Sequence record: MH791411.1
From: Escherichia phage Ecwhy_1
Strand: one strand, 5' to 3'
Length of the DNA: 64,000 bases
Shown here: positions 3,635 through 28,984 of the stretch, in pieces
Layout of the letters: each line of letters begins with the position of its first letter
How positions within the stretch are numbered: the stretch's first letter is position 1
Notes under the pieces: model-generated
Told to the model about the DNA's origin: nothing
What the model saw: only the letters and a program-made list of their open reading frames with translations
Database searches by the model: none
Position numbers and translations under genes: made by a program

Positions 3635-3940
3635 TTAGTAATCGTCATCTGCTTGTGGCAAATTGTTAGTAACACTTAGGATAGTTTCGATATTATCGAG
3701 TTTGTTTTGTTTATCAAAGTAATCGCCTTTGTAGATACGTTGAGCGGCTTGTTTGATATCGGATGCATCAATACCTAGTTCATCAGAGATGGAACTAATG
3801 AAATCTGCATAGGATGCTTTGGTGTCGTCAATAAAAGTAAGTTGTACTACTGCGTTGTTTAGTGCATCACCTAGACGTTTACGTTGTTCATCATTTAGGT
3901 CACGAATTTCAACTTTAACTTCTTTTTTAGCTTTTGCCAT
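3635..3940 (-). CDS. hypothetical small acidic protein (101 aa)
   Basis: ATG with GGAGAAG SD; C-terminal acidic tail QADDDY. Function not recognisable from sequence. Confidence 0.5.
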   Translation of the reverse strand: MAKAKKEVKVEIRDLNDEQRKRLGDALNNAVVQLTFIDDTKASYADFISSISDELGIDASDIKQAAQRIYKGDYFDKQNKLDNIETILSVTNNLPQADDDY

Positions 3941-4560: not shown

Positions 4561-6189
4561 TTAAGACTCCACTACTACGTTAGTCCATACACCATTGACT
4601 AATTTTTGTGTATATCTCCAACTATAACCTTCAACGTGTGTACCTGAACTACCATTTACTGAAATAAACAACCCATCCAGTGTAGCACCTTCTGGTGCAT
4701 AGATCCAAGAAGAATCAGGAACACTTCGCGTAGATGTTCTTTTACTTAAACGAACATCTTGTACAGCACCTAGTGTTAAAGTTACGTTACCGTTTGCATC
4801 AGCGTTGTTACCGTTAATAGATCTGACGATGTTTTTACTAGCAACAGTTGCTATGTTTCCAGAAATAGACAATGATGCACCAGTTACTGATGGAGCATAA
4901 AGTACACCAGAAGAGTTAATTGTAACTTCAGAACCACCATTACTTCTCAAACGTAATGTATTTGTTGATGAACTGTGATAAATTGCTGCACGTTCAGTAG
5001 TTCCTGCCGCGTTACGGAAGTAAAGTACTAATGAAGTATCATTCGAACGAATTGTTGCACTGTTTGCGATACTTAATGAACCAGACATTGTATCACCAGT
5101 TTTCAGTACATAACGGGTGTTTGCAACTTTTTCACTCAATGCAACGTTAGACTCAGCAATGTTATATAAGTATGCCACATTAAAGTGTGGTACGTCAATA
5201 TTGCTAATTCCGTGGGTATGTGCTTGTCCACTACCAACGGTATTGGTTGAACCACTGAAACTATGCACGTGATCAGGTGCTTCGTTAATGTTATTAATTA
5301 CAGTTGGGATTCCGTTGTCGTTACTGGATGTTAACGCATTAAGACCACTTCTGTCCATACCTTTTAGTGCTTGACTATGACCATGACGACCAGCAGCACC
5401 AGTAGTTCCACTGAAACTAAATGAGTGCGGTGGAAGTTGAGCAATTGATATCGCAGTCCCACTAATTGATGCACTACTTGCAATCACACTATCAGTTTTA
5501 GTTACGCCTGATGTGGTAATGCCTTTCAAGTATGCTTCTTGGTTAAGATTTGGAACTTGTTTTGTGATTGTACCATTTTCACCAACCCATTGCCACCACA
5601 TTCCATCAGCAAAACACCAACCATCAGAAGTTTTCCACGGAGAACCTTGTGAACCATTACGACCACTTTGACCATTGGTCACACCAGACATCTGTTCACG
5701 AATACTAGCAACAGTTTGTCCAGAAGTCAATGAGTACTGGGTAATTGCACCAGGCTTCATTGAAGTATAAAGACCTGTTGGGCCAGTACCGCTACTTGAT
5801 GGAATAGGGAATACGATATTTAAATTCGTACCACTAATGCTCGCACTTGGAACAGCACTACTACTATATGTTACTGTTTCAACTTTTAAATTCAGTTTAC
5901 GGTTCACTTCATCGAGTGAAATACGGATTGGTTCAAGAATTGTATCAGTATCGTATACTGCAATCCAACTTGTCCCGTTGTGGTATTTTAACACCAACTC
6001 ATTTCTATCAAATACCATAGCACCTTGCTCACCTGCTGGCAATGCCTGTACTGGTAAAATGACAGAAGATGAATTAAAACGAATAGGTCTTGGATTAGTT
6101 GGTGTACCACCAAGCACTATTAGTTCTAAAGATCCATTAGCACCAGTACTAGTCATAGTATCCAGTGGGTTATTAAAACTTATGCTCAT
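4561..6189 (-). CDS. tail fiber / receptor-binding-like protein with His-x-His motifs (542 aa)
   Basis: Ser/Thr/Gly-rich fibrous composition; HSFSFSG, HGHSQ, HVHSFSG and HTHGISN motifs resembling the HxH metal-binding tips of T4 gp12/gp37; AATAAATA late-type motif about 35 nt upstream of the ATG. Confidence 0.55.
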   Translation of the reverse strand: MSISFNNPLDTMTSTGANGSLELIVLGGTPTNPRPIRFNSSSVILPVQALPAGEQGAMVFDRNELVLKYHNGTSWIAVYDTDTILEPIRISLDEVNRKLNLKVETVTYSSSAVPSASISGTNLNIVFPIPSSSGTGPTGLYTSMKPGAITQYSLTSGQTVASIREQMSGVTNGQSGRNGSQGSPWKTSDGWCFADGMWWQWVGENGTITKQVPNLNQEAYLKGITTSGVTKTDSVIASSASISGTAISIAQLPPHSFSFSGTTGAAGRHGHSQALKGMDRSGLNALTSSNDNGIPTVINNINEAPDHVHSFSGSTNTVGSGQAHTHGISNIDVPHFNVAYLYNIAESNVALSEKVANTRYVLKTGDTMSGSLSIANSATIRSNDTSLVLYFRNAAGTTERAAIYHSSSTNTLRLRSNGGSEVTINSSGVLYAPSVTGASLSISGNIATVASKNIVRSINGNNADANGNVTLTLGAVQDVRLSKRTSTRSVPDSSWIYAPEGATLDGLFISVNGSSGTHVEGYSWRYTQKLVNGVWTNVVVES

Positions 6190-6230
6190 GTATAAATCCC
6201 TTTAATGATTAATATATACTATATTTATTA

Positions 6231-6539
6231 CTATAGCAAGTCGTTTTCCATATCGTCAAGAACAGAATCGACGATGTTCGCTGCTATCTTCTTAGGCATC
6301 TTGAACCACTCGGTGTTAGGTTGCCTTACTGCGTTCATTTGTTTTAGTCTTTTGTGAATTTCTTTCTCTGCTAAACGTGCATCTTCAAAGTGTACTTCAT
6401 GGTATACCACAAAATCTCTAAAAGGTGTAGCAGTTTGATATGTCCTTAAACGTTCTGTCATTTCAGATTTACTGGTAAATCCTATCTTAACATAATCAGG
6501 CCACGCATCATTTACTATAACATAACATATCTGTGACAT
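6231..6539 (-). CDS. T5orf172 / GIY-YIG-like domain protein (~102 aa)
   Basis: CYVIVND...YVKIGFTS...RLRTYQTATPF...EKEIHKRL...EWF matches the T5orf172 (MUG113) pattern as recalled; ATG at 6539 has a GGAGA SD (track ORF starts 15 nt earlier). Confidence 0.6.
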   Translation of the reverse strand: MSQICYVIVNDAWPDYVKIGFTSKSEMTERLRTYQTATPFRDFVVYHEVHFEDARLAEKEIHKRLKQMNAVRQPNTEWFKMPKKIAANIVDSVLDDMENDLL

Positions 6540-6578
6540 AGAAAATATCTCCATCAGTAATATGAAGATATTTATTAA

Positions 6579-6929
6579 TCAAGTAATTCGGAAATTTACC
6601 CCAGCATCAATTAGGCGTTGGAATGGGTTTTGTGGCTCGAATTCAGAAGGAGTTTTTGAAATGTTCAGTACTGGAGCATCAGCATGTAACTTTGACATAC
6701 GTTCTTTGTACTTATCTAAGTATTCTTCATATAACATATCTTCAGTGTTACTATCAAGTATGTCTTCAATAAATGAATCAATACTATAGTCCAGTCTATC
6801 ATCATTATAATACAAAGTTTCACTAGCTTCATCATAACCAACTAAAGTCCCGTATGGAACGTTAATCTCAATTTTTGAGTACTGACTCTTTAAGTACTCT
6901 TCTTTCTTAAAAATGTATACAGTTAACAT
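6579..6929 (-). CDS. hypothetical protein (~116 aa)
   Basis: Track ORF begins with TTG at 6938; the ATG at 6929 is preceded by TAAGGAG. No recognisable domain. Confidence 0.45.
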   Translation of the reverse strand: MLTVYIFKKEEYLKSQYSKIEINVPYGTLVGYDEASETLYYNDDRLDYSIDSFIEDILDSNTEDMLYEEYLDKYKERMSKLHADAPVLNISKTPSEFEPQNPFQRLIDAGVNFRIT

Positions 6930-6952
6930 CCGTGTCAACTCCTTATGGTTGT

Positions 6953-7876
6953 TTACTTAAAAGTATTTACGATTTCCAAAACACTTTCAAGATACTTAGC
7001 ATCAAAAGTTTCAGTAAATCCTGATGGTAACTCTTCAGTACTTACAACACCACTTTCAATGTATTGCTTGATGAACTTTTCCAATAATAATGGTTTGTTA
7101 CCATCCTCAAAGTAACGTTCTACCAGTACAGTGTGTTCAAAATCAGAATCACGGCTTTGTTCATGAATTCGCCTCTTCATGTCACCAGTAATTCCGTATT
7201 TGTAAACGACTTTTGAGTTATTAGATAGTTTTTGTACATAGAAATATCCAGGCTTTGATGGTTGATAACCATACTCACCACATGATGGACATCCTCTTCC
7301 TGCCATATGAGATTTGGGTATTTGTTTAAAGACACCATGTTCAGGACAAATAATATCCACATGTTCATCACTAGTCTTGTAATCCACCAAGCTATAATCA
7401 TACTTATGGTTATGGATAGGCGACACAAGTTCAATGAAACGTTCAGTACTTCTTCCACCTTTACCAGAACATATTCCACAACTAGTTTTTCCTTTTAATA
7501 ATGTTGCGGCTGATACTTCCCAATCATGAACATCATTTGGATCGTTGTGACATGTTACCGTCACTTTCCCATTACAATCACGTTGTCTTTTGTAGATAGT
7601 TTTTTCAAATGACAATGTTGGATGAATTGTTTTTACTTTCTCTATGAACGTTTCAGTTGTGTATGCTGTATTTTTTTGGCAAATATTACATCCCTTTGCA
7701 GTAGATCTTACAATTTGCATAGGAGTGATTTTGAAATAATGACCACCTTCCACACAATAAAGTTCAACCTGTTTATGTGCATTTATGTATACCATTTTAT
7801 CAAACAAATAAACCCCAGTGCCATATTTTTCATTCACCGTATTGATAAATTTTTCTTCATTTGGATTCATTGTCAT
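6953..7876 (-). CDS. zinc-ribbon repeat protein with C-terminal T5orf172/GIY-YIG-like domain (307 aa); putative homing-endonuclease-like nuclease
   Basis: Three tandem ~55-aa modules each ending in C-x2-C (GCNICQK, CGICSGKG, GCPSCGEYG) with conserved FIE...KYDYS...ICPEHG; C-terminal GYFYVQKLS...YKYGITGDMKRRIHE is GIY-YIG/T5orf172-like. Confidence 0.55.
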   Translation of the reverse strand: MTMNPNEEKFINTVNEKYGTGVYLFDKMVYINAHKQVELYCVEGGHYFKITPMQIVRSTAKGCNICQKNTAYTTETFIEKVKTIHPTLSFEKTIYKRQRDCNGKVTVTCHNDPNDVHDWEVSAATLLKGKTSCGICSGKGGRSTERFIELVSPIHNHKYDYSLVDYKTSDEHVDIICPEHGVFKQIPKSHMAGRGCPSCGEYGYQPSKPGYFYVQKLSNNSKVVYKYGITGDMKRRIHEQSRDSDFEHTVLVERYFEDGNKPLLLEKFIKQYIESGVVSTEELPSGFTETFDAKYLESVLEIVNTFK

Positions 7877-7904: not shown

Positions 7905-7933
7905 ATTATTACACAAAAAATGTGACATGTCAA
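7905..7933 (-). promoter_or_regulatory. sigma70-like promoter (TTGACA-N17-AATAAT) for the nuclease/fiber cassette
   Basis: Minus-strand TTGACA at 7933-7928 and AATAAT at 7910-7905, located between the capsid-gene terminator and the 6953..7876 start. Confidence 0.4.
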
Positions 7934-7935: not shown

Positions 7936-7966
7936 CAAAAAAGAAAAGGGACTCCGAAGAGTCCCT
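7936..7966 (-). terminator. rho-independent terminator after the major capsid gene
   Basis: GGGACTC-cgaa-GAGTCCC hairpin flanked by an A-run on plus (T-run on minus) and TATTGTTTTT on plus. Confidence 0.65.
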
Positions 7967-8009: not shown

Positions 8010-9185
8010 TTACATGAAAGTAACGTTTTTGATAGCGATTTTGCTGTAGTAGTCAGCAGCGTTACCAAGAGAAGAAGTACTATCAGTCAATTGTACATAA
8101 CCATACCTGGTAAGGAAAGTTGTGACCAATTCCCCAGTGTTAGGGTCCATTACAGTACCGGAAGCCATTAGTGGGATGTATGGGCAATAGAACACACCAG
8201 CATCAGTTTCAGCATTACCTTTATAACCAATCAAAATGTCCTCGACATCTGAGGCATACGTATCGACAAAAATACGCATGGTGCTGTTTAGAGTACCAAC
8301 GAATTTAACGTTAGTTGGAGCTTCGAAAGTACCTTCAGTAGTACGTGCAAAACTAGAAGTAGTTGCAGACTGTAGAATGGTTAGAGCGGTTGGAGAAACA
8401 ACAGCCCAGTTCGCAGCACCACGTTTGGTACGACGAGCAACTTCGTTCGCTTGACGGTTGATTAGGGTAGCTAGAGCAGCGTGCTCGTCACCAACGAAGG
8501 TCGCAACACCAGTAACTTTAGATTGGTCATAAGTTACAGCAGCAGCACCAGGTAGTGCACGTAGACGGCTTAGTAGCTCTTGGTCGATTTCAACGGTAAC
8601 TTCTTGAGCGATTGCAGCCATTAGTTCAGCTTCAACATCGATACCATGTTGGGATTGTGCATCTTGTGCAGATTCAACAGTCCAACGTGCAGATAGACGA
8701 CGAGATTTCGCTTCAACAGTTTCACGTAGGATACGGATGTTAACGCGACGACCCATAGTACCTTCTAGTTGGCTAGTAGGAGCAGCTTGTGGGTTGCTGT
8801 TGTCTGCGTTTAGGTCACCAGTATAAGACTTAGCGATTTTGTATGGAGAAAGCATTTCTTCACCAGCGATAACACCAGGAGCGTTGTCAGCATATTGAAC
8901 ACGTAGGGTGTGGATCTGACCAACTGGGCCAGTCATTGGCTGAACACCGATGATTTCGTTAGCGATTACGGTTGGCATAACACGACGCATAATTGGTAGA
9001 ATCACTTTGTTTAGAGTAGCGATGTTACCAGCGGTGGTTGCACCAGAAGTAGCAGATTCGTTTAGCATTAGTTTACGATGGTTATCAAGTACGGTTTCCA
9101 TTACGGACTTACGAGTACCTTGTAGACCTTCAACTAGTTTCTCTTTAACTGCTACCCATTTGGATTCATTTAGTAGTTGTGACAT
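8010..9185 (-). CDS. 23: major capsid protein (T4 gp23 family), 391 aa
   Basis: IANEIIGVQPMTGPVGQIHTLRVQY and NIRILRETVEAKSRRLSARWTVESAQD align to T4 gp23 IAFDICGVQPM... and ...VIEAKSRQLKAAYSIELAQD as recalled; AAGGAG SD. Confidence 0.85.
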   Translation of the reverse strand: MSQLLNESKWVAVKEKLVEGLQGTRKSVMETVLDNHRKLMLNESATSGATTAGNIATLNKVILPIMRRVMPTVIANEIIGVQPMTGPVGQIHTLRVQYADNAPGVIAGEEMLSPYKIAKSYTGDLNADNSNPQAAPTSQLEGTMGRRVNIRILRETVEAKSRRLSARWTVESAQDAQSQHGIDVEAELMAAIAQEVTVEIDQELLSRLRALPGAAAVTYDQSKVTGVATFVGDEHAALATLINRQANEVARRTKRGAANWAVVSPTALTILQSATTSSFARTTEGTFEAPTNVKFVGTLNSTMRIFVDTYASDVEDILIGYKGNAETDAGVFYCPYIPLMASGTVMDPNTGELVTTFLTRYGYVQLTDSTSSLGNAADYYSKIAIKNVTFM

Positions 9186-9220
9186 TATTATCTCCTTAAA
9201 GATGTTATATTCGTTTTTCA

Positions 9221-9278
9221 GTATGATATTATTTATAGAACTGAAAAATTTGATTATTAAAATGCTTTAAAATGTTTA
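9221..9278 (-). repeat. ~55-bp late-promoter cassette, copy A (second copy at 11978..12034)
   Basis: GTATGATATTATTTA...ACTGAAAAATTT...TTAAAA-GCTTTAAAA-GT is shared almost verbatim with 11978..12034. Confidence 0.6.
9230..9237 (-). promoter_or_regulatory. T4-type late promoter TATAAATA upstream of the capsid gene
   Basis: Exact TATAAATA on the minus strand about 45 nt upstream of the capsid ATG. Confidence 0.6.
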
Positions 9279-10391
9279 TTTTTTATTGATACCAGAAAGA
9301 ACATCGAGTTCTTTTAGGAATGCCATATCGTCAGCGGTCATTTCTTCGCTTTCAACAATAGCCTGACGGTTGCCAGTGATTACTTTACCTTCTGCAAGAG
9401 TTCTCTTAGCGGAAGACTGAACTGCTTGACGAGTGGTAGCAGATTCATTTACTTTAGTACCGTTAAGTACTGACTTATGGTACTTGCTGAAATCGTCTTT
9501 AAGCTTTTCTGTAGGAGAAGTAGCTAGAAGGGATTCCATAATTTGTTTCTGTTGTGTAGTTAGTGGCTTAACTAGTTCAGACATAATCGCATTACGAGCT
9601 TGTGAATCTTCCATAATACGTAGTTTGGTTTTAGCAGCTTTAACTTCACTTACAGTTTCATTTAGTTCTTGTTTAACTTGTGCAATTTCGTCTTCTTTAG
9701 ACTTAATTGATTCAGTTAGGGAACGTAGTAGTGAATTCTCATTAAATTGTTTGACATTAAACTCTTGAGCAAACGCTTCAAAGATTTTACGACCAAACAT
9801 ATTTTGTTTTGCTTCAACAAGATCTTCTTTCAAAGCGTATAGGTTTTTCTGAGTAGTTTCTGCAATGTATTTAGCAGCACTTTCAGAGGTACGTTTGATG
9901 AAGTTGTTACGTGCTTCAGCAATTTGACGGGAGCCTTCAGCTAGTAGTTTTACGCGAGTTTCAACTAGTTGACGTTTCTCGATGTGGAATTCTTTTAGCT
10001 CTTCTGCTAGGATACCGTTAGAGAAATTAACGAATTTACCCATGCATTCTTGAAGATGCTTACGTTCTTTACGCATTTGTTTAACTTCTTCAGCCAAAAC
10101 AGAGTTAGAAAACGCAGAGAAATTACTTAGGGTTTTACGGAGAGTTACACGATCTTCTACAAGACGTTTTTTCTCTTCATATACTGCACCCATTTCTTCA
10201 GCGATAACTTGAGTAACCATAGTATTTAGACCTTCGGTTAGCTCGGACAAATCTTGTTTGTAGCGGCCTTTCATTTCTTCACGCATTTCTGCGGCAAGTG
10301 TGTTTTTTTCTTCATTCCATGCTTCCTGAATTAGCTGTTTTGCCTCATCAGAAAGAGATGATTCTTTTAGAAGCTTTTCTAATTTAGACAT
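9276..10391 (-). CDS. 22: prohead scaffold/core protein (gp22-like), 371 aa
   Basis: Strongly charged, predicted coiled-coil composition (E/K/L/Q-rich); sits between protease and capsid gene as in T4; AAAGGAGAG SD. Confidence 0.6.
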   Translation of the reverse strand: MSKLEKLLKESSLSDEAKQLIQEAWNEEKNTLAAEMREEMKGRYKQDLSELTEGLNTMVTQVIAEEMGAVYEEKKRLVEDRVTLRKTLSNFSAFSNSVLAEEVKQMRKERKHLQECMGKFVNFSNGILAEELKEFHIEKRQLVETRVKLLAEGSRQIAEARNNFIKRTSESAAKYIAETTQKNLYALKEDLVEAKQNMFGRKIFEAFAQEFNVKQFNENSLLRSLTESIKSKEDEIAQVKQELNETVSEVKAAKTKLRIMEDSQARNAIMSELVKPLTTQQKQIMESLLATSPTEKLKDDFSKYHKSVLNGTKVNESATTRQAVQSSAKRTLAEGKVITGNRQAIVESEEMTADDMAFLKELDVLSGINKK

Positions 10392-10457
10392 TCGTTCTCT
10401 CCTTTAAGTACTGAAATATCTGTACTTCAACATACAAATATTTATATTTTTAAAATG

Positions 10458-11078
10458 TTAACCTTTTAATTTCTTGAAAAAATCGTAAATTTCAGAATCT
10501 ACATTATTTACTGTTTTAGATTCTGTGATTTTTTTAGGACTATTACAAGGTGATCCGTACTTACTCATCAGAGATTCAAAAACCGCAGTAGGGTATGCCT
10601 CTGGAGCACTAGGTTGAGCAACAATATCAATTGTGATAATTTCAAAATCAGAAACTATTCCATTGTAATCCACGTTACCGGAACCACGAGAACTTACACC
10701 AAGTTTCACACCAGCTTCTAGCATTTTACGAATATTAGTACCATGAGCAGTATCAAGTAGTTTGATTTCTGCCATGCCGTTAGCACCTTCCATCCAGACC
10801 TTAGTAATCATTGCTGCTACACGGTCAAGGTTAATTGTTAGTGTTTCTGGGTGGTCACATTCAACTAGAATACTTTCACCTTTAGCCAAACGTTGAGCCA
10901 TATTATTAACAGCTTTAGTAATTTCGGCTAAAGGGTAAATTCTCTCATTTAAATTTCTTTGATCGGCTTGAATAGCAATACCACGAAGATAGCAATCACG
11001 CCCACCAAGTCCATTATCACGATGTTCCAAAACAACTTTAGAATCATTGAATGAAGACCATTCACGAATCATACTCAT
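10458..11078 (-). CDS. 21: prohead protease (gp21-like), 206 aa
   Basis: Size and position (core - protease - scaffold - capsid) match T4 gp21; AAGGAG SD. Sequence similarity to gp21 is by impression only. Confidence 0.6.
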   Translation of the reverse strand: MSMIREWSSFNDSKVVLEHRDNGLGGRDCYLRGIAIQADQRNLNERIYPLAEITKAVNNMAQRLAKGESILVECDHPETLTINLDRVAAMITKVWMEGANGMAEIKLLDTAHGTNIRKMLEAGVKLGVSSRGSGNVDYNGIVSDFEIITIDIVAQPSAPEAYPTAVFESLMSKYGSPCNSPKKITESKTVNNVDSEIYDFFKKLKG

Positions 11079-11109
11079 AATGATCTCCTTTCCTTTTCTT
11101 TATTTAGTG

Positions 11110-11943
11110 TTAGATTTTTGGTTGTGATTTTGGTAGTGGAGAACGAGATTTAGAAGCGGTATTTTTTGGCTTCGCAACATCTTTCATTTCGCCACGAGCA
11201 TTTTTACCTAGGTCTTCATCAGTGTGGGACATAGCATCTTCGTTTTCAAAATCATAATCTACTTGTTTTTCGGAAGCTTTAGCGAATTTCACTGGAGCAA
11301 CACCTTGAACTGGAGATTTAGCTTCTGGGGCAACTGGAGACTTGGTATTAACGCCAGCTTTTTCTTTCTTATCAACCGCAGCAACTTGCTTAAGTTTGAA
11401 AGACTCACCAACTTTCTCATCACCGAATTGTACATCAGCAAATTCGTCTTCAGATTCTTCACCATCAGCACCGAATTCTTCTTCCGCACCAACTTCAACT
11501 TCTTCGTCGTCAGAACCTAGGTCAACTTCATCACCACCGATTTCGTCAAACATTTGTTGTAGGCCACGGAAAGCATCTTGAATAGATTCCCATTGGTCTT
11601 CGGAAGGAACTTCTGCACCAACTTCTGCTTCAGCGTCAACTTCTTCGCCATCAGCATCAGCAGAGAATTCAACTTCTTCTTCTGCACTTTCATCTTCTTC
11701 ACCTAGGGTGTATTCGATTTCAGCATTTAGACCAGCGTCTGGTTGAACATCAAAGTCTTCGTCAAGTTTTTCTTCGTCTTTGACTTCAACTTCACATTCT
11801 TCTTCGTCCATGCTTTCTTCTAGTTCTTTATTGATTTCTTGAGCTTGCTCAACAAAGTACTTACGCATTTTTTTATCAGCAACATCTTGTTCGCCGTTTG
11901 CAAACGCTTCAATTGCTTCTTGTAGTAGTTTTAAATTCGCCAT
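11110..11943 (-). CDS. acidic prohead core / internal protein (~277 aa)
   Basis: Extremely acidic (long E/D runs); GGAGGA SD before the second ATG; occupies the T4 gp68-like position between portal and protease. Confidence 0.5.
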   Translation of the reverse strand: MANLKLLQEAIEAFANGEQDVADKKMRKYFVEQAQEINKELEESMDEEECEVEVKDEEKLDEDFDVQPDAGLNAEIEYTLGEEDESAEEEVEFSADADGEEVDAEAEVGAEVPSEDQWESIQDAFRGLQQMFDEIGGDEVDLGSDDEEVEVGAEEEFGADGEESEDEFADVQFGDEKVGESFKLKQVAAVDKKEKAGVNTKSPVAPEAKSPVQGVAPVKFAKASEKQVDYDFENEDAMSHTDEDLGKNARGEMKDVAKPKNTASKSRSPLPKSQPKI

Positions 11944-11977
11944 TATATCCTCCATAGATATATTACATTCATATAAA

Positions 11978-12034
11978 GTATGATATTATTTAGTACTGAA
12001 AAATTTCGCCATTTTTAAAAGCTTTAAAAAGTGC
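11978..12034 (-). repeat. ~55-bp late-promoter cassette, copy B (variant ACTAAATA core at 11987..11994)
   Basis: Near-identical to 9221..9278; the core motif sits 44 nt upstream of the 11943 ATG. Confidence 0.55.
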
Positions 12035-12043
12035 GATTTTTGT

Positions 12044-12271
12044 TTACATTAATCCTGAACCATCACCGGATGGTGCTGCTGCATAAACAACAGCGACAAC
12101 ATTTTTGCGTCGTTGTTCTTCATTAGCTTTAAATTCACGGTACTTTCTTAAATTATTAAGTACTTGTAATGTTAGTTTTGGTTTTCTGGAATCAGTAATT
12201 TTATATACGTTCTGATCATCTTCAGGGTCGTATAAAGAATCACTGCTAGATTCAAAGATGTCCTTTAACAT
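12044..12271 (-). CDS. small head-module protein (75 aa; gp67-like by position)
   Basis: ATG with AAAGGAGA SD; located between portal and core genes. Confidence 0.45.
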   Translation of the reverse strand: MLKDIFESSSDSLYDPEDDQNVYKITDSRKPKLTLQVLNNLRKYREFKANEEQRRKNVVAVVYAAAPSGDGSGLM

Positions 12272-12344
12272 TTCATCTCCTTTGAATATGCATTATAATG
12301 AGGGCAACTAATGTACCCTCATTCTTATACATTGTTATTTATGA

Positions 12345-14081
12345 TTAAAAAGAATCGCCTAAATTATTCGGGTTAAAACCTGCACTTCCTTGTTGTTCTT
12401 GGTATTCAGCATCGGCACTTTCTAAGTTACCGTCACCATCAATACCCAAATCCATACCAGGATCGTTAGGAGCATCTATACCAACAGATTGCAACCCAGC
12501 AGCATCTTCTTCACCACTTGACGGAGCGGAACCATCTTGTGGATTTTCTTGGAGCCACATTTGCTCATTCTTAACAATATCAGCTTTAGAGAAGCCCATT
12601 TTTTCAAGAATAGTTTGTTTTGCCATATATGGCAGATCGTTAAGTGGGAGATAGGTGTTAATTAGTTTAGCATCTAGTTCCGCTTTACGATAAGAAGCCA
12701 AGTTAATAGGTGGATTCATAATTACTTCAAAAGATGAAGTACTAATGTTATATCCATTTTTAACCATAAAACGTTTAAATTCTGCATCAAATAGTTTTGC
12801 AACTAAACGTTGATAACGCATACATTGGTTATTAAAACGTAATTCACTTGCCATTGCTTGTGTTGCACCATCACCGAATAGTGATACACCACCATCATCT
12901 GGACCTTGCGGTAGATATGAAGCTGGAATTTGCAATCCACGAATCAATTTATTGTTGAAGTAACGCAAGTCATCAATCTGACCTAAGTTATCACCACCTG
13001 GAAGTGTTTGTACATCTGAACCACGACCTTCAGAAGTTTGTGGGAAGAAGTAATCTTCTAGAATACTTAATGGATTATATGCTGCATCCATTAGAGAAGT
13101 ACTGCCACCTTTATTTGAAGGAATACGTCTTTGGTGAATTTCATTTTTGAATCGTTCTACGTATGCCATTGCTTGGTGAGTTTGCATATCACCAACGTCG
13201 ATTTTAAATACACGACGCTCTGGAGCACGTTGAACACGATAGATAATAATACTATCTTCAAGTAATTCTTTTTGTTTATAGACTTTGAAAACATCTTCAA
13301 GTATACTAGTACCAAAAGGCCAAACTCCATCTTGTCCTGTATTTAGGGTTAGATGAATTACGTGTTCTGCACCAACTGGAATAACATCAAGACGACCGTT
13401 AGTACTGAATGGGTCAGCAGAGTTTCCTTGGTTAGTAAAGCCAGATGCACCACCTGCTGCTACTGAACCACCGCCACCTAATGTGGTAGGGATTGCACCA
13501 GGATATGCAGTTTTGTCAAAACCAACTTGTAAGTTACTAAACACTTTATCTTTAAGATTCAAAGATACGTCACGGATATAATAAATTACAGGGGTTTTTC
13601 CGGTTGCTTCGTTAACGAATACTTGTTCAACGTTTTTTGGGCTTACCCAGTACCAGTCAAATGTTTCTGGGTCACGAATGAAGAATTGGTCACCGTATTT
13701 TAATAGGCCACGTACAATTTCATACATTCTGGTTTTAAAATCATTTTGTTCAGTCCATGCATCCAAACGGTCTTCAATAGTAGTTACTTCTGTATCACCA
13801 ATATCATCTTTATATTTGATTTTATATGGAAGACCAAAATCTTCAGTACTTTGTGTACAGAAGTCAGCAATGATATTAAGTGCTGTTCTAATTTCAGGAT
13901 CTTGGTCCATCTGTTCATACTGACTATAACGTTCAGTACGGTTAGCTAAACCATTGTATACTACTGGAAGATAGGAAGCGAAATTGGTTTTCGTTCCTGT
14001 TGATTTGTTGCTATTACTGGACTGATTAGGGACGACCGATAACTTCGATCTCCCCATTGTCATATGTCGTTTCCAACTCAT
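12345..14081 (-). CDS. 20: portal protein (gp20-like), 578 aa
   Basis: IIYRVQRAPERRVFKIDVGDM and DYFFPQTSEGRGSDVQTLPGGDNLGQIDDLRYF align to T4 gp20 [21 protein letters not shown] and [33 protein letters not shown] as recalled; AAGGA SD. Confidence 0.9.
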   Translation of the reverse strand: MSWKRHMTMGRSKLSVVPNQSSNSNKSTGTKTNFASYLPVVYNGLANRTERYSQYEQMDQDPEIRTALNIIADFCTQSTEDFGLPYKIKYKDDIGDTEVTTIEDRLDAWTEQNDFKTRMYEIVRGLLKYGDQFFIRDPETFDWYWVSPKNVEQVFVNEATGKTPVIYYIRDVSLNLKDKVFSNLQVGFDKTAYPGAIPTTLGGGGSVAAGGASGFTNQGNSADPFSTNGRLDVIPVGAEHVIHLTLNTGQDGVWPFGTSILEDVFKVYKQKELLEDSIIIYRVQRAPERRVFKIDVGDMQTHQAMAYVERFKNEIHQRRIPSNKGGSTSLMDAAYNPLSILEDYFFPQTSEGRGSDVQTLPGGDNLGQIDDLRYFNNKLIRGLQIPASYLPQGPDDGGVSLFGDGATQAMASELRFNNQCMRYQRLVAKLFDAEFKRFMVKNGYNISTSSFEVIMNPPINLASYRKAELDAKLINTYLPLNDLPYMAKQTILEKMGFSKADIVKNEQMWLQENPQDGSAPSSGEEDAAGLQSVGIDAPNDPGMDLGIDGDGNLESADAEYQEQQGSAGFNPNNLGDSF

Positions 14082-14093: not shown

Positions 14094-16292
14094 TTAACTG
14101 TTTCTCTCACCTTGGGTGTTTTCAGAGATAGTTCTTAGATAATTATTTGTCTGTTGTACAGCAGATAGTGATTGTTCATTAACATCGGCAAGCTTTTTGA
14201 GTATTTCTTTCATTTCATCAGAAATCGGTGCTGGTGGTCCAGTTCTCGATGTCACTGCACTACCATTATTTATCATCTTCTTAATTGCCTCTGTATCGTC
14301 AGGTTTTGGTGGAACTGGTGGTTCACCTGGTGCCCATGCAGTTTTATCAAAATCTTTACGAGATACAGTTATTTCTGGAGCAACGTTATTGGTTTTTTCA
14401 ATAACAGGACGAATACGTTCTACTCCTGGACGGTTGAATAAACTGTCAGCATAATCAGATGGTAGTGGTTTTGGTTCTTTGTAGTTACGTGAGGTGTTCC
14501 ATTTGTTGAACTTATCCCACATCCCTGCAAAATAATCACTAACACTATTTACACCGTTGTCAATGATGTTGTTTACGCTTTCTGCTGGGGTTTCAGTACT
14601 GTTATTGAGTTTTATATCATTATCAGAACCACCACCGAACCAACTTTTAACAGAATTCCATAGGTTACCTGGTAAATCCATTAAGTTATTCATAAAGGTA
14701 TCAAATGCTTCTGACACTTTAGAGTAACCTGAACCGAATATATCTGCACCCAATCCATCCAACCAAGCTGTAAATTCAGCACCAATACGATCAAGGTAAG
14801 CAATTGCATCTTTAGCAATAGGTACTAACCCAAATCCATCAAGAGCCAATTCCCCAATAAACTCCCATGCACCATCAGTTCTGTCTGCAATGTCAGAAAG
14901 ATAATCCACAATTGAATTTTGTGTATTAGCATACATTGTATTAAATGGTTCAGTGAATTCTTTACTAATCCACATATTGAAGCGGTTAGTAAATTGAGTT
15001 AATTTATCAGCGGGATTATTTTTAGGTTCATTTACGGTTGCTTCCATATCCAATAGTTGTTGGTAGAAGGTTGCAGCAGTTGTGTTTCCTAATTGAATCT
15101 GGTTAAGCAAATCTTGCTTAATTAATTCTTTATTCTTTTTAACGAATTCTAATTGTTGGCGACGAATTTCTTGTGAATCAGTTACACCACTACGTACAAG
15201 ATTTTCACCTAAATCAGCGAACTGGTTCAGTACTGGAGTGAGTAGGTCATCCGGTACGCCACCAATAGACAATCTGTGTGATATCAAACGGAGGAAATCT
15301 GCACCTGCATCACCCATTGCACCCGCAGCTTCGTTGAACGCCTTAGATGTTGCTACAGCAGCTTTACTGGATAGTCCAGAGTAGTTCTGCAATGCAATTT
15401 GCATAGAACGAGTATCGAGTGATTTATCTAGGTTTTGCGTTTTGTTTAGTAATGCATCAACGGATTCACCCATACTTTTACTGAATTTAGTCATGCTCAT
15501 GATAAATTGTTCAGTACTTTTAGCTTGGTCCATACTACGAAGAGCTTCACGACCACCATATTGTTTTTGGAACTTAATGTTTCTTGCAGTTAAATCAGTT
15601 AATGTTTTTTGAGAAATACCATAAAGGCCAAGTTCATTTTGAGCTTGTTGAACAGTTCCTAATAATTTACCAAAGGTAGCAACACCATCACCATATGCCC
15701 CATCCAATTGAGCTACTACAGAACTATGTGTTTGTAGAGCTTCACTGAATGCATCCATACTCAACATAGATGCACCTGCACCTTTCAGTACTGAACCATA
15801 ACCTTCAGCCAATGCAACACCAGCACTGTTAATTCTGGTATATACTTCCAATTGTGCATTAAGTGCGTTATATACAGCAAGACCAGCACCAGTAACGAGT
15901 TTAAATGCTGCTGCCGCTGCACCAATTGGACCTGGCATCATTGCTAATGAACCAGCAAATGATGATGCACTAACGCCTAATGAGTTTACTACAGTACTTA
16001 CGTTCGTACTGGAGTTCATCATTGTTTTGCTTACATTGGAAACTTCAGAAGATAGTGATTTGAACAATTTACCAAATGCTTTCCCATCATCGGCTTGTGC
16101 ACTTCCACGATTTCCACGATTACTGGAAGAACTGGAACTGGAACCATTCTTTTTACTATTTGAACCTGATTTTTTCTTATCATTCTTTATATTTTCAGCT
16201 AATAACTCACGGATAGCAGTCAAACTATCATTGTTATCTTTAGTTTGATTAACCAACTGCTGTAGTAGGTAATCACTTGTATTGACAGCCAT
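14094..16292 (-). CDS. Gly/Ala/Ser-rich virion protein, tape-measure-like or internal/ejection protein (~732 aa)
   Basis: Start taken at MAVNTSDYLLQQ (AAGGGA SD); poly-Ser tract, Ala/Gly-rich helical segments typical of tape-measure proteins; immediately upstream of portal in the same operon. Confidence 0.4.
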   Translation of the reverse strand: MAVNTSDYLLQQLVNQTKDNNDSLTAIRELLAENIKNDKKKSGSNSKKNGSSSSSSSNRGNRGSAQADDGKAFGKLFKSLSSEVSNVSKTMMNSSTNVSTVVNSLGVSASSFAGSLAMMPGPIGAAAAAFKLVTGAGLAVYNALNAQLEVYTRINSAGVALAEGYGSVLKGAGASMLSMDAFSEALQTHSSVVAQLDGAYGDGVATFGKLLGTVQQAQNELGLYGISQKTLTDLTARNIKFQKQYGGREALRSMDQAKSTEQFIMSMTKFSKSMGESVDALLNKTQNLDKSLDTRSMQIALQNYSGLSSKAAVATSKAFNEAAGAMGDAGADFLRLISHRLSIGGVPDDLLTPVLNQFADLGENLVRSGVTDSQEIRRQQLEFVKKNKELIKQDLLNQIQLGNTTAATFYQQLLDMEATVNEPKNNPADKLTQFTNRFNMWISKEFTEPFNTMYANTQNSIVDYLSDIADRTDGAWEFIGELALDGFGLVPIAKDAIAYLDRIGAEFTAWLDGLGADIFGSGYSKVSEAFDTFMNNLMDLPGNLWNSVKSWFGGGSDNDIKLNNSTETPAESVNNIIDNGVNSVSDYFAGMWDKFNKWNTSRNYKEPKPLPSDYADSLFNRPGVERIRPVIEKTNNVAPEITVSRKDFDKTAWAPGEPPVPPKPDDTEAIKKMINNGSAVTSRTGPPAPISDEMKEILKKLADVNEQSLSAVQQTNNYLRTISENTQGERNS

Positions 16293-16437
16293 AACATTCC
16301 CTTTTAATAGATGTATTATAGAAATATTTATGAATCTATAACGAATAAAAAAGACCCATCTATAACATTTGTCCAATTTGTCCCATTTTTTGGTAATAAA
16401 TACTACAGAGACATTTATTACATGGAGATTTAATAAA

Positions 16438-17274
16438 ATGGCAATGAACCCACTAGCTAAGTATACTAAAATTGAAGAACTTGGTACAAAATTGGTCACA
16501 AATGGCGTGATTCCTTATAAAGAAGGAGTTCTTGGCTCTAAAGGTATCAAATGTGGCATTTGTGCTCGTAGTGCACGCGATGAAATGACACTCAATACAC
16601 CAGATATGCTTCTAAATGGTGATGCAATTGCTCGTGTTATTGAAAACTGCGTACCTAACGTACTTGATGCAGATGAACTTTATGTAAATGACGTAGAGCA
16701 ACTACTTATCGCTATTAAAGTAGCTTCTAAAGAAGAATCATATGATATTAATGTGACATGTCCTGAATGTAACAAAGAAGGCCGTTTTGAGCGTAGCTTA
16801 TCATATCTACTAGAAACAGCACAAACTTTCAGTGAAGTTCCTACTGTACAATTGGATAATGGACTAAGTTTAGAGTTTAGACCACTTACTTGGAAGGAAT
16901 ATTCTAACTTCGCAGAAAGAATGTTTACAGAACAACAAAAAACTAAATTCCTTGAAACTGCCGAAATGGAGCAGGAAGAAAAAGTTAAAGTGTTTGGTGA
17001 AGTATTTGAAAGTATGGCACAACTCAACTTTGATATGATCGCAGGAGTTATTGCTAAAGTAATTACTCCTGAAGGTGATGAAGTAACTGAAAACGAATTC
17101 ATTGCTGAATGGCTAGGTCAGCAGTCCAAAGGAACACTTAAAATAATTCGTGAAAAAATGGATGAAGTACTTGAAATTGGTGTTTCCCATACTATGGAAG
17201 TTGAATGCAGTGACTGTAATCATCAATGGGAAATTAATGGACTGAAATATGACCCAAGTCATTTTTTCGCATAA
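16438..17274 (+). CDS. hypothetical zinc-binding protein (~278 aa) with three C-x2-C motifs
   Basis: CGIC, CPEC and CSDC motifs; GGAGA SD; AATAAATA late-type motif upstream. Confidence 0.5.
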   Translation: MAMNPLAKYTKIEELGTKLVTNGVIPYKEGVLGSKGIKCGICARSARDEMTLNTPDMLLNGDAIARVIENCVPNVLDADELYVNDVEQLLIAIKVASKEESYDINVTCPECNKEGRFERSLSYLLETAQTFSEVPTVQLDNGLSLEFRPLTWKEYSNFAERMFTEQQKTKFLETAEMEQEEKVKVFGEVFESMAQLNFDMIAGVIAKVITPEGDEVTENEFIAEWLGQQSKGTLKIIREKMDEVLEIGVSHTMEVECSDCNHQWEINGLKYDPSHFFA

Positions 17275-17483: not shown

Positions 17484-17492
17484 CTCACAAGG

Positions 17493-17523
17493 AGCCAGCA
17501 CATTGTTGCTGGTTTTTTTTTTT
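17493..17523 (+). terminator. rho-independent terminator
   Basis: GCCAGCA-cattgt-TGCTGG hairpin followed by a 12-nt T-run. Confidence 0.75.
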
Positions 17524-18323
17524 GGTTTTAAACTACAGAATTGATTGAATTGAATTATGAAAGGAATTAATTATTTTATAGTGAACTCATCTAACTCATT
17601 TCATTCGTTAGCTGAAGAATATTCGTTACTACGTAACTCATATTCATTTCTTATAATTAATTATAAAGAACTTTAAAAGATTTAATACTTGACGGGATTT
17701 GTTGAAGACATTTTCATCCCCCCGCAGGGGAATGAAGACAATAAAAAAGAGACAATTAAGTCTCTTAATTCTTGACGCTGATGGTTTCAGCATTTATTGT
17801 ATTGCGAATTTCTTAAAATTCATTAAGAACGAAAGCGGGTTGCTCTGTTTCTCTCTATCGCAGTCATGTGCAACGGTCGTCAGTCTTAATCATCCTGACA
17901 CTCACCTGAAAGTCTATACAATCAAACTTCAGGCTGTTTATTAAATCACTTAATAAACTCCCTTAGCAAATCTGGTAAGGTGCGATCCTTATACATCTAT
18001 CGAGGAACTCTCTGTATGCTTATCGGAGTTCTTTATTGAGCCGTGTCGCCGTGAGGGGTTCAAACTATGCCCACATCTAACGGGTTTCTTCTGCTCATCG
18101 CACTGTTGAACTGCTCATCTGCCATCTACATTTTCGATAGGATCAGGTTCTAATTTATATGCATTTCTGCATTCAACAGGATTGTCATCACTACAATTAA
18201 CATTATAGCACCAAATTCAAAAGTGTCTCACTATTATGATAAAAAATTTATAAAAAGTACATAATTCTTGAACATTGAAGTAACGCATAAATATTTTGAT
18301 AAGAATTAGTTTAGTGGGGATTT

Positions 18324-18815
18324 ATGAAGAAAAGATTAAAAGATAGTAAAGAAGCTGCAAACTATCGAAATGAATTACTAAAGAAGCAAAAAGGAATTGA
18401 TCCTATAATTAAGGAACCAATCACTAAGCCAGTACTTGATCACTATCACTTCGAGAATCAACACTGTCGTGAAGTTCTCCAGAACGAAGTGAACGCATGG
18501 GAAGGTAAAGTACAGAACAGCTTTAATCGCTATATGAAGCACTTAACCGATAAACCCTTATACGAGGTACTACGAAATCTTGCGGATTATCTGGAGCGTA
18601 ATAACAGCATTCCTGAAGATGAGCAAGTTATACATCACACTGCACTAACAATCGATACGAATAAGTTTAAAAGGCTCCCAGCAGGACAACAGAATGCAAT
18701 ACTGGAAGAGTTAGGTGTTATCCCTGGTGCAAACAATGCTGCTCGTGTTAAGCAAGCCAGAAAGCTTATCAAGGAAGGCAAATTAAATATGGTAGATATA
18801 AAAAAAGGGAGCTAA
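18324..18815 (+). CDS. endonuclease VII-like (T4 gp49-like) HNH-type nuclease, 163 aa
   Basis: LDHYHFENQ...NEVNAWEGKVQNSFNR...DYLERN resembles T4 EndoVII HLDHDHELNG...NAAEGQMKHKFNR...DYLEWLEN as recalled; CATAAATA late-type motif about 30 nt upstream. Confidence 0.5.
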   Translation: MKKRLKDSKEAANYRNELLKKQKGIDPIIKEPITKPVLDHYHFENQHCREVLQNEVNAWEGKVQNSFNRYMKHLTDKPLYEVLRNLADYLERNNSIPEDEQVIHHTALTIDTNKFKRLPAGQQNAILEELGVIPGANNAARVKQARKLIKEGKLNMVDIKKGS

Positions 18816-20993: not shown

Positions 20994-22025
20994 TTATAGT
21001 GATCTGTAAATTTGGATTAGAAGATTTTTATCGAACATAGGTGAATCAATTTCCATGATTTGTTGTAACACAATCTCATCAACTGACTCAGTACTTTCAA
21101 AGCTTTCACCATCTTCAATAAGTTCTTTGATACTTTGCTTGCTAGTAACAACGTTAAACTCACGAATGTTATAAAGTTTAGTAAAAGTATCACGAATAAA
21201 ACTAATCTCATCAGTAGTGATAGCAATATCAACTTGAACCTTTGAAATAGTATTGTCTTGAAGATAATAACTTGGATCTGTTAATAGTTCTGAAAGTGTA
21301 AATGTTCTATATTTTGGTGCTTCTGACCAAGAATGGAAAGTTGGTTCTTTACCATGTTCTAAAATCATCACACCTCTTGCATCATCCCATGTATCAGAAA
21401 AGTTATGTGGGAAACAGTTACCTGTGTAAATTACACGAGTTCCTTTAGATGTTGTTTTTGCTTGTCTCTTGTGGAAATGTCCACTAAAAACATACTCACA
21501 ACCACCAAAAGAACCTTCAGTCTCTTTACCATGATCTGGCATCTCAACCATTTTATTGAGCAAGTATCCAGGTAACTCTAAGTGACCAAAAACATACTTA
21601 CTTTTAAGTTGAGGTAGAACTTTGTATTCATCTTCAATCATAAATGGAATGAAAGTACAATCATCAAATGTTGTGATTTCATTAATGAACTCGATGTTCT
21701 CATAAACTTGTGCCATATTAATACTAGTAATGTCACGTTTATTTTTATGATACATGTCATGGTTCCCAACTAAGAAGTAAACCTTATCAAAGTTGTCATT
21801 TAGTAATTGTAGAATTTGTAAACCATAGTTTAATGTTTGAATGTTAATATTACTGCGGTTATGGAAGTAATCTCCCATAAACACGCATACAGTAATACCA
21901 TTTTTCTTAGCAAGTTCAATCATAAACTTGATGAAGTTCAAACAATCTTCGTTGTGCTGCTTGCTGTTATTCTTTAATCCTAAATGAATATCAGTAAATG
22001 TAATTGCTTTATCAAATAGAGCCAT
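20994..22025 (-). CDS. 47: Mre11/SbcD-like nuclease (gp47-like), ~343 aa
   Basis: Calcineurin-like phosphoesterase motifs FTDIHLG, GDYFH, GNHD, GHLE, SGHFH; ATG at 22025 with AAAGGA SD (track ORF starts 18 nt earlier). Confidence 0.85.
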   Translation of the reverse strand: MALFDKAITFTDIHLGLKNNSKQHNEDCLNFIKFMIELAKKNGITVCVFMGDYFHNRSNINIQTLNYGLQILQLLNDNFDKVYFLVGNHDMYHKNKRDITSINMAQVYENIEFINEITTFDDCTFIPFMIEDEYKVLPQLKSKYVFGHLELPGYLLNKMVEMPDHGKETEGSFGGCEYVFSGHFHKRQAKTTSKGTRVIYTGNCFPHNFSDTWDDARGVMILEHGKEPTFHSWSEAPKYRTFTLSELLTDPSYYLQDNTISKVQVDIAITTDEISFIRDTFTKLYNIREFNVVTSKQSIKELIEDGESFESTESVDEIVLQQIMEIDSPMFDKNLLIQIYRSL

Positions 22026-22851: not shown

Positions 22852-22908
22852 TATTTCAACTCTCCATGTTTTAAATCCAATAGGTACATTCCTTGTACCA
22901 TCAATGTT

Positions 22909-22936: not shown

Positions 22937-22939
22937 ACG

Positions 22940-22947: not shown

Positions 22948-22982
22948 CATCAAATGTTCCCTTCTTATGGAGAATCAAAAAG

Positions 22983-28972: not shown

Positions 28973-28984
28973 ATATTTCAGTAC

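Follow-up and report, generated by a model that had tools for sequence, protein, structure and literature searches.

A probable duplicated cassette of terminator-like hairpin and late promoter in the head gene module of the jumbo coliphage Ecwhy_1

Two nearly identical blocks, one ahead of the major capsid gene and the other ahead of a virion/prohead structural gene (11110..11943; hereafter the 11110 gene), lie in a 64,000-nt stretch of the genome of Escherichia phage Ecwhy_1 (MH791411.1), which was analyzed as a whole and is called the window below. The source is a RaK2-like jumbo coliphage (jumbo myovirus), a distant relative of T4. What signal do these blocks carry, and why does their similarity extend so far beyond a promoter core? 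The preliminary description of this DNA, made from the sequence alone, had located two blocks of about 55 bp, each with an 8-bp core, and had tentatively attributed the conserved sequence around the core to an extended late-promoter element or an activator site. The analysis presented here identifies the blocks as probable copies of one terminator-plus-late-promoter cassette, i.e. an ordinary and largely anticipated type of signal. The explanation favoured overall, with a probability of roughly 0.72, combines this duplicated cassette with a gp55-like sigma factor and with a dyad that was acquired later by the capsid copy.

The duplicated cassette and the late-promoter motif

The two blocks are real, lie where they had been placed and are to be read on the minus strand, which carries every gene near them; the repeat unit is slightly longer than first described, i.e. 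ca. 65 nt (copies 1 and 2, Table 1). On this strand, copy 1 reads ...AAAAATAAACATTTTAAAGCATTTTAATAATCAAATTTTTCAGTTCTATAAATAATATCATACTG... and copy 2 reads ...AAAAATCGCACTTTTTAAAGCTTTTAAAAATGGCGAAATTTTTCAGTACTAAATAATATCATACTT.... Their promoter-proximal halves match at 30 of 32 positions, with one 2-nt indel (AAATTTTTCAGTTCTATAAATAATATCATACT versus AAATTTTTCAGTAC--TAAATAATATCATACT; blastn E 4.9e-6 within the window), which falls inside the core and yields TATAAATA in copy 1 and ACTAAATA in copy 2. The distal (upstream) halves align at 26 of 32 positions, with a local score of 18 against a shuffle null of 7.65 ± 1.55, and the same-offset upstream segments of 18 other promoters score 5–13. For each half of the cassette, none of 2000 shuffles reached the observed score. 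A third, shorter copy, AAATATTTCAGTACTATAAATAATA, sits 17 nt ahead of a lysozyme-domain baseplate gene (29010..29498; Pfam Phage_lysozyme). The core, for which a distance of 44–45 nt to the ATG had been given in both blocks, ends 44 nt before that of the capsid gene (9185). At the second gene the distance is 43 nt to the ATG supported by a Shine-Dalgarno sequence (11943), and 31 nt if counted to the earliest in-frame ATG, at 11955.

The recurring core is (A/C)TAAATA, and all the variants listed earlier (TATAAATA, CATAAATA, AATAAATA, GATAAATA and ACTAAATA) were found upstream of genes, on both strands. In the window, TAAATA occurs 41 times (both strands counted) versus 68 occurrences expected under a maximal-order Markov model, and is thereby depleted. 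As many as 21 of these 41 lie, strand-matched, within the 70 nt upstream of a start codon, where 0.87 would be expected (binomial p 1.4e-24), such zones making up 2.1% of positions; the exact TATAAATA, present in four copies, precedes a gene in all four cases. The genes bearing the motif encode head, baseplate, tail-fibre and lysozyme-domain proteins and endonuclease VII, and only three of the 21 upstream motifs do not precede virion genes. These are found before: (i) a GIY-YIG-like gene (6231..6554), (ii) a hypothetical gene (6579..6938) and (iii) the endonuclease VII-like gene. A gene-by-gene list for the window showed no motif before the DNA polymerase, SbcCD-like, sigma, Clp-like, Nudix and operon-internal genes.

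A position weight matrix was derived from 20 sites aligned on the TAAATA hexamer, with binomial tests. The base directly before the hexamer is A (14/20) or C (4/20), the base ahead of that is free, and a T-rich stretch, supplied partly by terminator tails, occupies positions −13 to −8 from the hexamer, while no conserved hexamer was found at −35 in the 20 aligned sites. The sixth base after the hexamer (offset +11) is A in 16 of the 20 sites (p 1.6e-4), followed by A/T and then by a purine, and this A, six nt 3' of the core, is the probable transcription start.

A candidate factor for the recognition of this motif is encoded within the window by the gene 22012..22950. Its product matches, besides the late sigma profile given in Table 1, phrog_234 'late sigma transcription factor' (E 1.5e-16), its counterpart is called a sigma factor in the annotation of phage fEgEco12, and the gene adjoins gp46/47-like genes. 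T4 gene 55 likewise adjoins genes 46/47. In fEgEco12, a sliding clamp is annotated just outside the span of the window; the CBB authors stated that they had found neither a gp33 co-activator nor a gp45 sliding clamp (PMC5259590). The concentration of the motif before virion genes, its absence before replication and recombination genes, its depletion elsewhere and the presence of a gp55-family sigma factor give good support to the late-promoter reading proposed earlier, and the TAAATA sites are very likely T4-type late promoters.

The promoter class is already known for this clade, since the same motif was predicted in the sister phages CBB and GAP32. According to the excerpted text of the CBB study (PMC5259590), ATAAATA ('promoter 3') was detected with MEME at 35 places upstream of structural genes of these two phages, was likened by the authors to the T4 late promoter, and a gp55-like sigma factor was noted. 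The excerpts of its Table S7 contain both ATAAATA and CTAAATA forms, as well as the orthologue (Porf_256) of the promoter that precedes the scaffold-like gene in the window (core at 10439), and do not contain promoters for the capsid gene (Porf_257) or Porf_254, the 11110 orthologue; nor do the excerpts of this study (PMC5259590) mention a duplicated cassette, a start-site preference or a capsid dyad. The genome papers of Sharanji and fEgEco12 (Asteriusvirus) are without promoter analysis.

Could the similarity of the blocks be a chance likeness of A+T-rich intergenic DNA, with the TAAATA motifs not being promoters at all? The intergenic DNA is indeed ~70% A+T, and over the full window the exact TATAAATA shows no excess, with 4 copies against 7.05 expected. 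This view is, however, already contradicted by the statistics, i.e. by alignment scores far beyond the shuffle nulls for each half and by the positional enrichment of the motif, and the cores are conserved orthologously across genera, so its probability is negligible.

The claim that conservation extends beyond the 8-bp core proved correct, but the conserved sequence does not form a single extended element, and nothing observed points positively to an activator site. It is composite and consists of a terminator-like hairpin with a T-run, the −1 A, the probable +1 A and leader bases, the last of which are common to paired promoters only. The distal half of copy 2 is a terminator-like element following the small gene 12044..12271, because its conserved hairpin (17 pairs in RNAalifold, five of them with compensatory changes, across nine relatives) is followed by T5 and more distant phages (XaC1, a Vibrio phage and PA5oct) have their own, different and GC-richer hairpin at the same place. 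The core follows 12 nt past the hairpin and T-run, and a consensus terminator scan did not pick this AT-rich stem (12006..12036). The shared TTTTAAAGC is the apical part of the copy 2 hairpin; copy 1 no longer has the G-C pairs at the foot of the stem (TCGCAC/TGGCGA changed to T-AAAC/TAATC), so that no comparable hairpin is left there. The proximal part is made up of the T-run, CAGT(A/T)C and the core, followed by ATATCATACT with the predicted start (A of CATAC) and the beginning of the leader, and ATAAATAA-N3-CATAC is kept at both promoters in most enterobacterial relatives.

Sharing of sequence beyond the core was also observed elsewhere in the window. The segments 55880..55925 and 60962..61005 constitute a second near-identical promoter pair (AACTAAATATA[T/A]GTATATTAACAA), and a 14-mer, ATAAATATTTCTATA, is common to the promoters with cores at 16325 and 29946 and is found twice in the excerpts of the published CBB list (Table S7, PMC5259590). 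The late promoters seem to fall into sub-families set by the first transcribed bases. Moreover, TAAATAATAGCATAC at 48560..48574 (plus strand) is a close likeness of the capsid-type promoter with its start region. It lies inside gene 47449..48792, with 239 nt separating it from the Nudix gene downstream, and may represent either an internal late promoter or a fortuitous match.

Origin and conservation of the two copies

The 4.4-kb region around the cassettes shares 99.5% identity with Escherichia phages WPEC5 and fEgEco12, ~90% with the Asteriusvirus group (PBECO4, 121Q and G17) and 72–76% with RaK2, K64-1, GAP32, CBB, Serratia phage BF, Yersinia phage fHe-Yen9-04 and Salmonella phage 7t3, and the head module is collinear in every relative compared. 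At the capsid promoter, (N)ATAAATA is conserved in all enterobacterial relatives, and orthologues of the second promoter carry TATAAATA, AATAAATA or ACTAAATA. Uncultured relatives with 64–69% capsid identity have only a 20–35-nt spacer before the capsid gene, usually without TAAATA, and retain TAAATA with a T-run upstream of it ahead of both the 11110 homologue and the small gene. Since these deep relatives have TAAATA before the 11110 homologue and usually none before the capsid gene, the capsid promoter, along with those of the protease and scaffold-like genes, would be an addition of the enterobacterial/Vibrio branch, and the 11110 cassette is the likely source of the capsid copy. It is probable that the terminator-promoter cassette was duplicated and that the capsid copy is the derived one.

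The favoured explanation may be outlined as follows. Late in infection, the host RNA polymerase core with the phage gp55-like sigma factor would recognize a single −10-type (A/C)TAAATA element, with no −35 box, and would start transcription at the A six nt 3' of the core, producing A/U-rich leaders of ~37 nt that end in strong Shine-Dalgarno sites. The unit of hairpin, T-run and core before the 11110 gene would be ancient, being present even in Pseudomonas, Vibrio and uncultured relatives. In the enterobacterial lineage a copy of it would have been placed ahead of the capsid gene, the terminator stem of this copy then decaying, and purifying selection, probably joined by occasional gene conversion, would have preserved the likeness of promoter, start and first leader bases. 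In addition, the capsid copy would have evolved a 9-bp dyad around the core, foldable only in read-through RNA coming from the upstream head genes.

Constraint on the capsid copy is visible in the comparison with PBECO4, in which the 90-nt capsid upstream region has no substitutions and one 1-nt indel, versus 16% divergence at third codon positions of the capsid and scaffold-like genes; a 58-nt query was 100% identical in 43 records. Selection on this upstream region is strong. The sequences downstream of the two promoters tend, in turn, to be alike within a genome: AGTTATATAAA in the Vibrio phage (12/14), CATACAAA at both promoters in XaC1 and CATACTGAAA at both in EJP2. This within-genome likeness points to gene conversion or to a constraint that both promoters have in common at the start of their transcripts.

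Apparent exchange of sequence between the two copies of a genome would also suit the proposal that the repeats are recombination substrates, i.e. mobile promoter/terminator cassettes kept alike for modular exchange and not for expression. Such units are known from T4-type phages as promoter-early stem-loop (PeSL) cassettes (PMC2839356, PMC4122927), and the stem-loop-then-promoter architecture and multi-copy nature of the blocks resemble them (PMC4122927); the extended flanks shared by further promoter pairs (55891/60973 and 16325/29946) speak for the proposal too. It is nevertheless quite improbable: there are only two to three copies in 64 kb, they flank conserved core head genes and not variable regions, their promoter is of the late and not of the early sigma-70 type, and no indel between the compared relatives is bounded by the copies. 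A sigma-70 consensus scan revealed no minus-strand (gene-oriented) match in either cassette, and near 11937..11989 it gave only 9/12 matches, on the opposite (plus) strand.

The dyad at the capsid promoter and the genome-wide palindrome

The capsid copy of the duplicated cassette differs from the remaining promoters in the strength of an inverted repeat around its core. Two 9-nt arms, TTTTTCAGT and ACTGAAAAA, bracket the core of the capsid promoter and may pair over a 17-nt loop (−6.7 kcal/mol, z −4.5, 0/200 shuffles). The comparison among relatives was performed with per-sequence constrained folds that force pairing across the core, with flank shuffles, since differences in loop length lead MAFFT to misplace the left arm. 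In 12 of 14 relatives such folds have energies between −5.8 and −9.4 kcal/mol, with G.U variants and a change of CAG/CTG to CTG/CAG among the arms. The two arms are both altered in CBB, GAP32 and BF (TTTTCTGT/ACAGAAAA), the RaK2 dyad contains a G.U, the XaC1 stem is shifted (TTGTGTG/CATACAA) and the arms of the Vibrio phage are unrelated in sequence. The hairpin arrangement appears to persist from genus to genus among RaK2-like phages, and a Vibrio phage seems to have rebuilt it from other sequence. The capsid promoter has the strongest bracket of the 20 in the window (z −4.8); brackets are also present before 14094..16292 (z −3.1) and 51642..52769 (z −2.4), and the other 17 are weaker than −1.3.

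As the left arm lies upstream of the predicted start, the capsid hairpin would form only in read-through RNA. The same would apply to the hairpin 10414..10443, in which PBECO4 turns a G.U into G-C, because its 5' arm lies upstream of or over the 10439 core that this hairpin overlaps. The right (3') arm of the capsid dyad ends at 9214, leaving a gap of 16 nt before the Shine-Dalgarno sequence (9192..9197), and for this reason sequestration of the ribosome site by the dyad is not expected; RNAalifold found no conserved outer helix reaching the capsid Shine-Dalgarno sequence. T4-like sequestration through pairing of TTTTAAAG with the Shine-Dalgarno sequence, seen in the 100-nt fold of the window, was dropped as a candidate, this pairing being apparently not kept in CBB on hand inspection. 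A single-stranded or cruciform 'hairpin promoter', of which phage N4 is the type case, was judged unlikely, a 9-bp A/T stem with a 17-nt loop being unfavourable. A role of the dyad at the RNA level can be put forward only tentatively, and the best guess is that it stabilizes or marks read-through or processed capsid mRNA.

A different view of the dyad is that the conserved extra sequence is a site for a late-gene activator or repressor, e.g. a dimer bound to TTTTTCAGT and ACTGAAAAA as inverted half-sites. A T4 DsbA-like factor at the gene 23 promoter would offer a comparison. Such a site would fit the conservation of the dyad across genera and the joint change of both arms in the CBB/GAP32 group, and also the capsid upstream region being invariant at every base across genomes with 16% synonymous divergence, the recurrence of the left-arm sequence at three promoters and the presence of a 101-aa protein (3635..3940, minus strand, adjoining the DNA polymerase gene) with a weak match to a PHROG 'transcriptional regulator' (E 1.6e-7). 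However, the half-sites are ~26 bp apart centre to centre, which places them on opposite helix faces, and pairing is kept although the arms are wholly different in the Vibrio phage and shifted in XaC1. Wherever the dyad departs from symmetry, the sense RNA has a G.U and never an A.C, a pattern slightly more in keeping with an RNA hairpin than with a symmetric site for a protein. In addition, relatives do not keep the shared left-arm sequence at their second and third promoters, and CAGTAC is not enriched near promoters. A regulator site is, therefore, considered an unlikely explanation.

The nonamer TTTCAGTAC had been described as often flanking the cores; it is found directly upstream of only three of the 20, and within ±40 nt of these cores CAGTAC shows no enrichment relative to its density in the genome at large (7 observed, 5.0 expected, p 0.24). 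With at most one mismatch, the nonamer occurs 91 times in the window versus 26 expected, mostly within genes. Because of this distribution, the flank is to be regarded as a genome-wide sequence and not as a promoter element; it is not conserved at the second-copy or third-copy orthologous promoters of relatives, and is part of a genome-wide palindrome excess abutting three promoters by chance.

The excess itself is pronounced. AGTAC is the most over-represented pentamer of the window, AGTACT occurs 133 times, and the 8-bp palindrome CAGTACTG is present in 35 copies versus 1.08 expected from dinucleotide shuffles (~32-fold; maximum of 4 in 100 shuffles), spanning positions 359 to 63316 (e.g. 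14594, 15786, 29971 and 38911). Codon-pair counts show selection at the DNA level, with Ser-Thr written as AGT-ACT 76 times (23.7 expected) and Val-Leu as GTA-CTG 19 times (1.9 expected). The palindrome excess is common to RaK2, GAP32 and related loci and is absent in distant uncultured relatives. Individual CAGTACTG sites show turnover. PBECO4 retains 10 of 21, where random octamers are retained at a rate of 25.5%, and its own total over this stretch is 12. A literature search on CAGTACTG returned primer sequences only. The palindrome might mark sites for a DNA-level process, e.g. nicking or clamp loading, which are what activates late promoters in T4. At the other extreme, the most under-represented tetramers of the window are GATC (192 observed, 456 expected) and CATG (294 observed, 535 expected).

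A bolder reading, of low probability, takes the dyad for a previously undescribed post-transcriptional capsid-mRNA device and, separately, the palindrome CAGTACTG for the mark of a DNA-level process. Such a device could treat promoter-initiated and read-through capsid mRNA differently, with the ribosome-binding site untouched, and one possible form of it is a 5' stem-loop protecting RNase-processed read-through mRNA.

Several points weigh against the favoured explanation, i.e. the duplicated cassette with a gp55-like sigma factor and a later capsid dyad. The 22012..22950 product has no Pfam or PDB sequence match, and its assignment comes from PHROG profiles and from the annotation cited in the excerpted text of PMC5259590. 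No gp33-like co-activator was found in a PHROG scan of the small open reading frames of the window. The papers found on this clade contain no mapped transcription start for any phage. The direction of the duplication is deduced from presence and absence in relatives. As the T-run region and CAGTAC of copy 2 differ in PBECO4 (GATTTTAATCAGTAC) and the core alone of the third copy is kept there, part of the present three-way identity would be recent and dispensable. Regarding the dyad, RNAalifold on a MAFFT alignment of 12 capsid-upstream sequences gave no consensus structure, its support consists of per-sequence folds, one clear compensatory swap and few wobble changes, amounting to few independent events, and a symmetric protein site would show paired changes too.

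Genomic setting and comparison with known systems

The positions of the cassettes, promoters and genes discussed are collected in Table 1. A GC-rich hairpin (12297..12323, minus strand; −18.7 kcal/mol, z −3.9) lies in the leader of the small gene 12044..12271, between this gene and its CATAAATA core, and relatives carry stems of differing sequence at the equivalent position. The CATAAATA core of the endonuclease VII-like gene is flanked, within 18255..18323, by TAATTCTT...AAGAATTA, a layout like that of T4 gene 49; this bracket is not significant against shuffles (z −1.25). An Rfam scan of the window revealed no family, and ARAGORN no tRNA.

Table 1 Features of the cassettes, putative late promoters and head genes in the window. 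Promoter cores are given with the gene that they precede; transcription starts are predictions.
Feature	Position	Strand	Remarks
Cassette copy 1	9220..9283	-	upstream of capsid gene; decayed hairpin region, T-run, core, predicted start, first leader bases
Cassette copy 2	11977..12041	-	upstream of virion/prohead structural gene 11110..11943
Third, shorter copy AAATATTTCAGTACTATAAATAATA	28971..28995	+	blastn 23/25, E 1.8e-5; core at 28985..28992
Core TATAAATA, capsid promoter	9230..9237	-	44 nt from ATG
Predicted transcription start of capsid gene, A of CATAC	9224	-	position weight matrix and T4 geometry (PMC1524935)
Dyad left arm TTTTTCAGT	9240..9248	-	upstream of predicted start 9224
Dyad right arm ACTGAAAAA	9214..9222	-	predicted +3..+11 of late transcript
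Core ACTAAATA, second promoter	11987..11994	-	predicted start 11981
Terminator-like AT-rich hairpin 3' of small gene 12044..12271	12006..12036	-	-7.9 kcal/mol, z -3.0; T-run (T5) 11999..12003
Core TATAAATA, scaffold-like gene 9276..10391	10439..10446	-	hairpin 10414..10443 overlaps its 3' end
Core ACTAAATA, prohead protease gene 10458..11078	11101..11108	-	
Core CATAAATA, small gene 12044..12271	12336..12343	-	
Core AATAAATA, tail-fibre gene 4561..6189	6222..6229	-	
Core CATAAATA, virion protein gene 14094..16292	16325..16332	-	ATAAATATTTCTATA in common with 29946 core
Core AATAAATA, baseplate hub gene 16438..17274	16395..16402	+	
Core CATAAATA, endonuclease VII-like gene 18324..18815	18286..18293	+	
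Core TATAAATA, gp48-like baseplate gene 22983..23714	22940..22947	+	inside antisense 5' end of sigma gene
Core GATAAATA, baseplate wedge gene 30012..33473	29946..29953	+	terminator upstream
Core CATAAATA, 3333-aa virion gene	33510..33517	+	terminator upstream
Core GGTAAATA, virion gene 45956..47452	45917..45924	+	
Core AATAAATA, gene 51035..51532	51564..51571	-	divergent partner of 51598 core
Core GATAAATA, gene 51642..52769	51598..51605	+	
Core ACTAAATA, long-tail-fibre gene 55958..60892	55891..55898	+	
Core ACTAAATA, second long-tail-fibre gene (61042 onward)	60973..60980	+	flanks near-identical to 55891 core
gp55-like late sigma factor gene, 312-aa product	22012..22950	-	PHROG 12791 'sigma factor for late transcription', E 1.4e-152
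Portal gene	12345..14081	-	
Small gene, 75 aa	12044..12271	-	
Virion/prohead structural gene	11110..11943	-	PHROG 15696 'virion structural protein'
Prohead protease gene	10458..11078	-	Pfam Peptidase_S77
Scaffold-like gene, 371 aa	9276..10391	-	
gp23-like major capsid gene	8010..9185	-	Pfam Gp23, E 9.5e-90
Intrinsic terminator closing head-gene transcription unit, 3' of capsid gene	7947..7966	-	8-bp stem, 5 GC pairs, then TTTCTTTTTT

Several features of the neighbourhood stand apart from the cassettes. Immediately past the capsid-gene terminator lies a 307-aa open reading frame (6953..7876, minus strand), absent from fEgEco12, which encodes a treble-clef zinc finger (DUF4379), shows weak similarity of the MUG113 type and is preceded by a near-consensus sigma-70 promoter (7905..7933, minus strand; TTGACA-17-AATAAT with TG, 11/12). 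Its product is probably a homing endonuclease, and an endonuclease gene stands next to the capsid gene in RaK2 and PA5oct too. Two gene-poor stretches, 17484..17698 (215 nt) and 17945..18323 (379 nt), are unusually long, without a convincing open reading frame and with no Rfam match; in 17945..18290 (346 nt) predicted structure is not in excess (z 0.02).

The core finding itself is expected for a relative of T4. Its practical yield is a usable late-promoter map, covering 20 sites over 64 kb and the start base predicted for them, for jumbo coliphages that are candidates for therapy, and it corrects the view of TTTCAGTAC as a promoter element. Through the copying of an older unit of terminator and promoter, the capsid gene would have come to possess a strong promoter of its own, and a regulatory cassette would thus have been duplicated within a conserved head module. 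New biology at the RNA or DNA level could be revealed by the conserved dyad and by the excess of CAGTACTG throughout the genome.

Among known systems, PeSL cassettes are likewise composites of a terminator hairpin and a promoter that occur in more than one copy per genome; copy 2, with its terminator-like hairpin, has this structure, and in copy 1 the stem has decayed. Unlike PeSLs, the blocks described here carry a late promoter, are few in number and belong to the conserved head module, where gene shuffling associated with them was not observed. Another parallel is offered by the T4 genes e, soc, 49 and I-TevI, whose late promoters are embedded in hairpins formed only in longer transcripts (PMC3014915). 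As in these genes, the 5' arm of the capsid and 10439 hairpins lies upstream of or over the core, so that promoter-initiated RNA would be without it. In the T4 genes, however, translation is blocked by a 3' arm that includes the Shine-Dalgarno sequence or AUG (PMC3014915), and in the capsid dyad this arm ends 16 nt short of the Shine-Dalgarno sequence.

A further comparison is with the late promoters of T4 and its relatives. In T4, TATAAATA occupies positions −13 to −6, and a loose first position together with C at −12 (CTAAATA in Aeh1) is documented in T4 relatives including RB49 and KVP40 (PMC1524935). The promoters of the window resemble those of T4 in having a single A/T-rich −10-type element and no −35 box, in standing before virion, lysozyme-domain and endonuclease VII genes, in the depletion of the motif elsewhere, in the phage-encoded gp55-family sigma factor and in the preference for A at the T4 spacing. 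They differ from them in the looseness of the first two core positions (TA, CA, AA, GA, AC, GG), with an invariant TAAATA after A or C, and the sigma factor, at 312 aa, has ~160 extra N-terminal residues relative to its PHROG 234 match. With 'promoter 3' of CBB and GAP32, as presented in the excerpts of that study (PMC5259590), they share the same clade, the same motif and the same association with structural genes.

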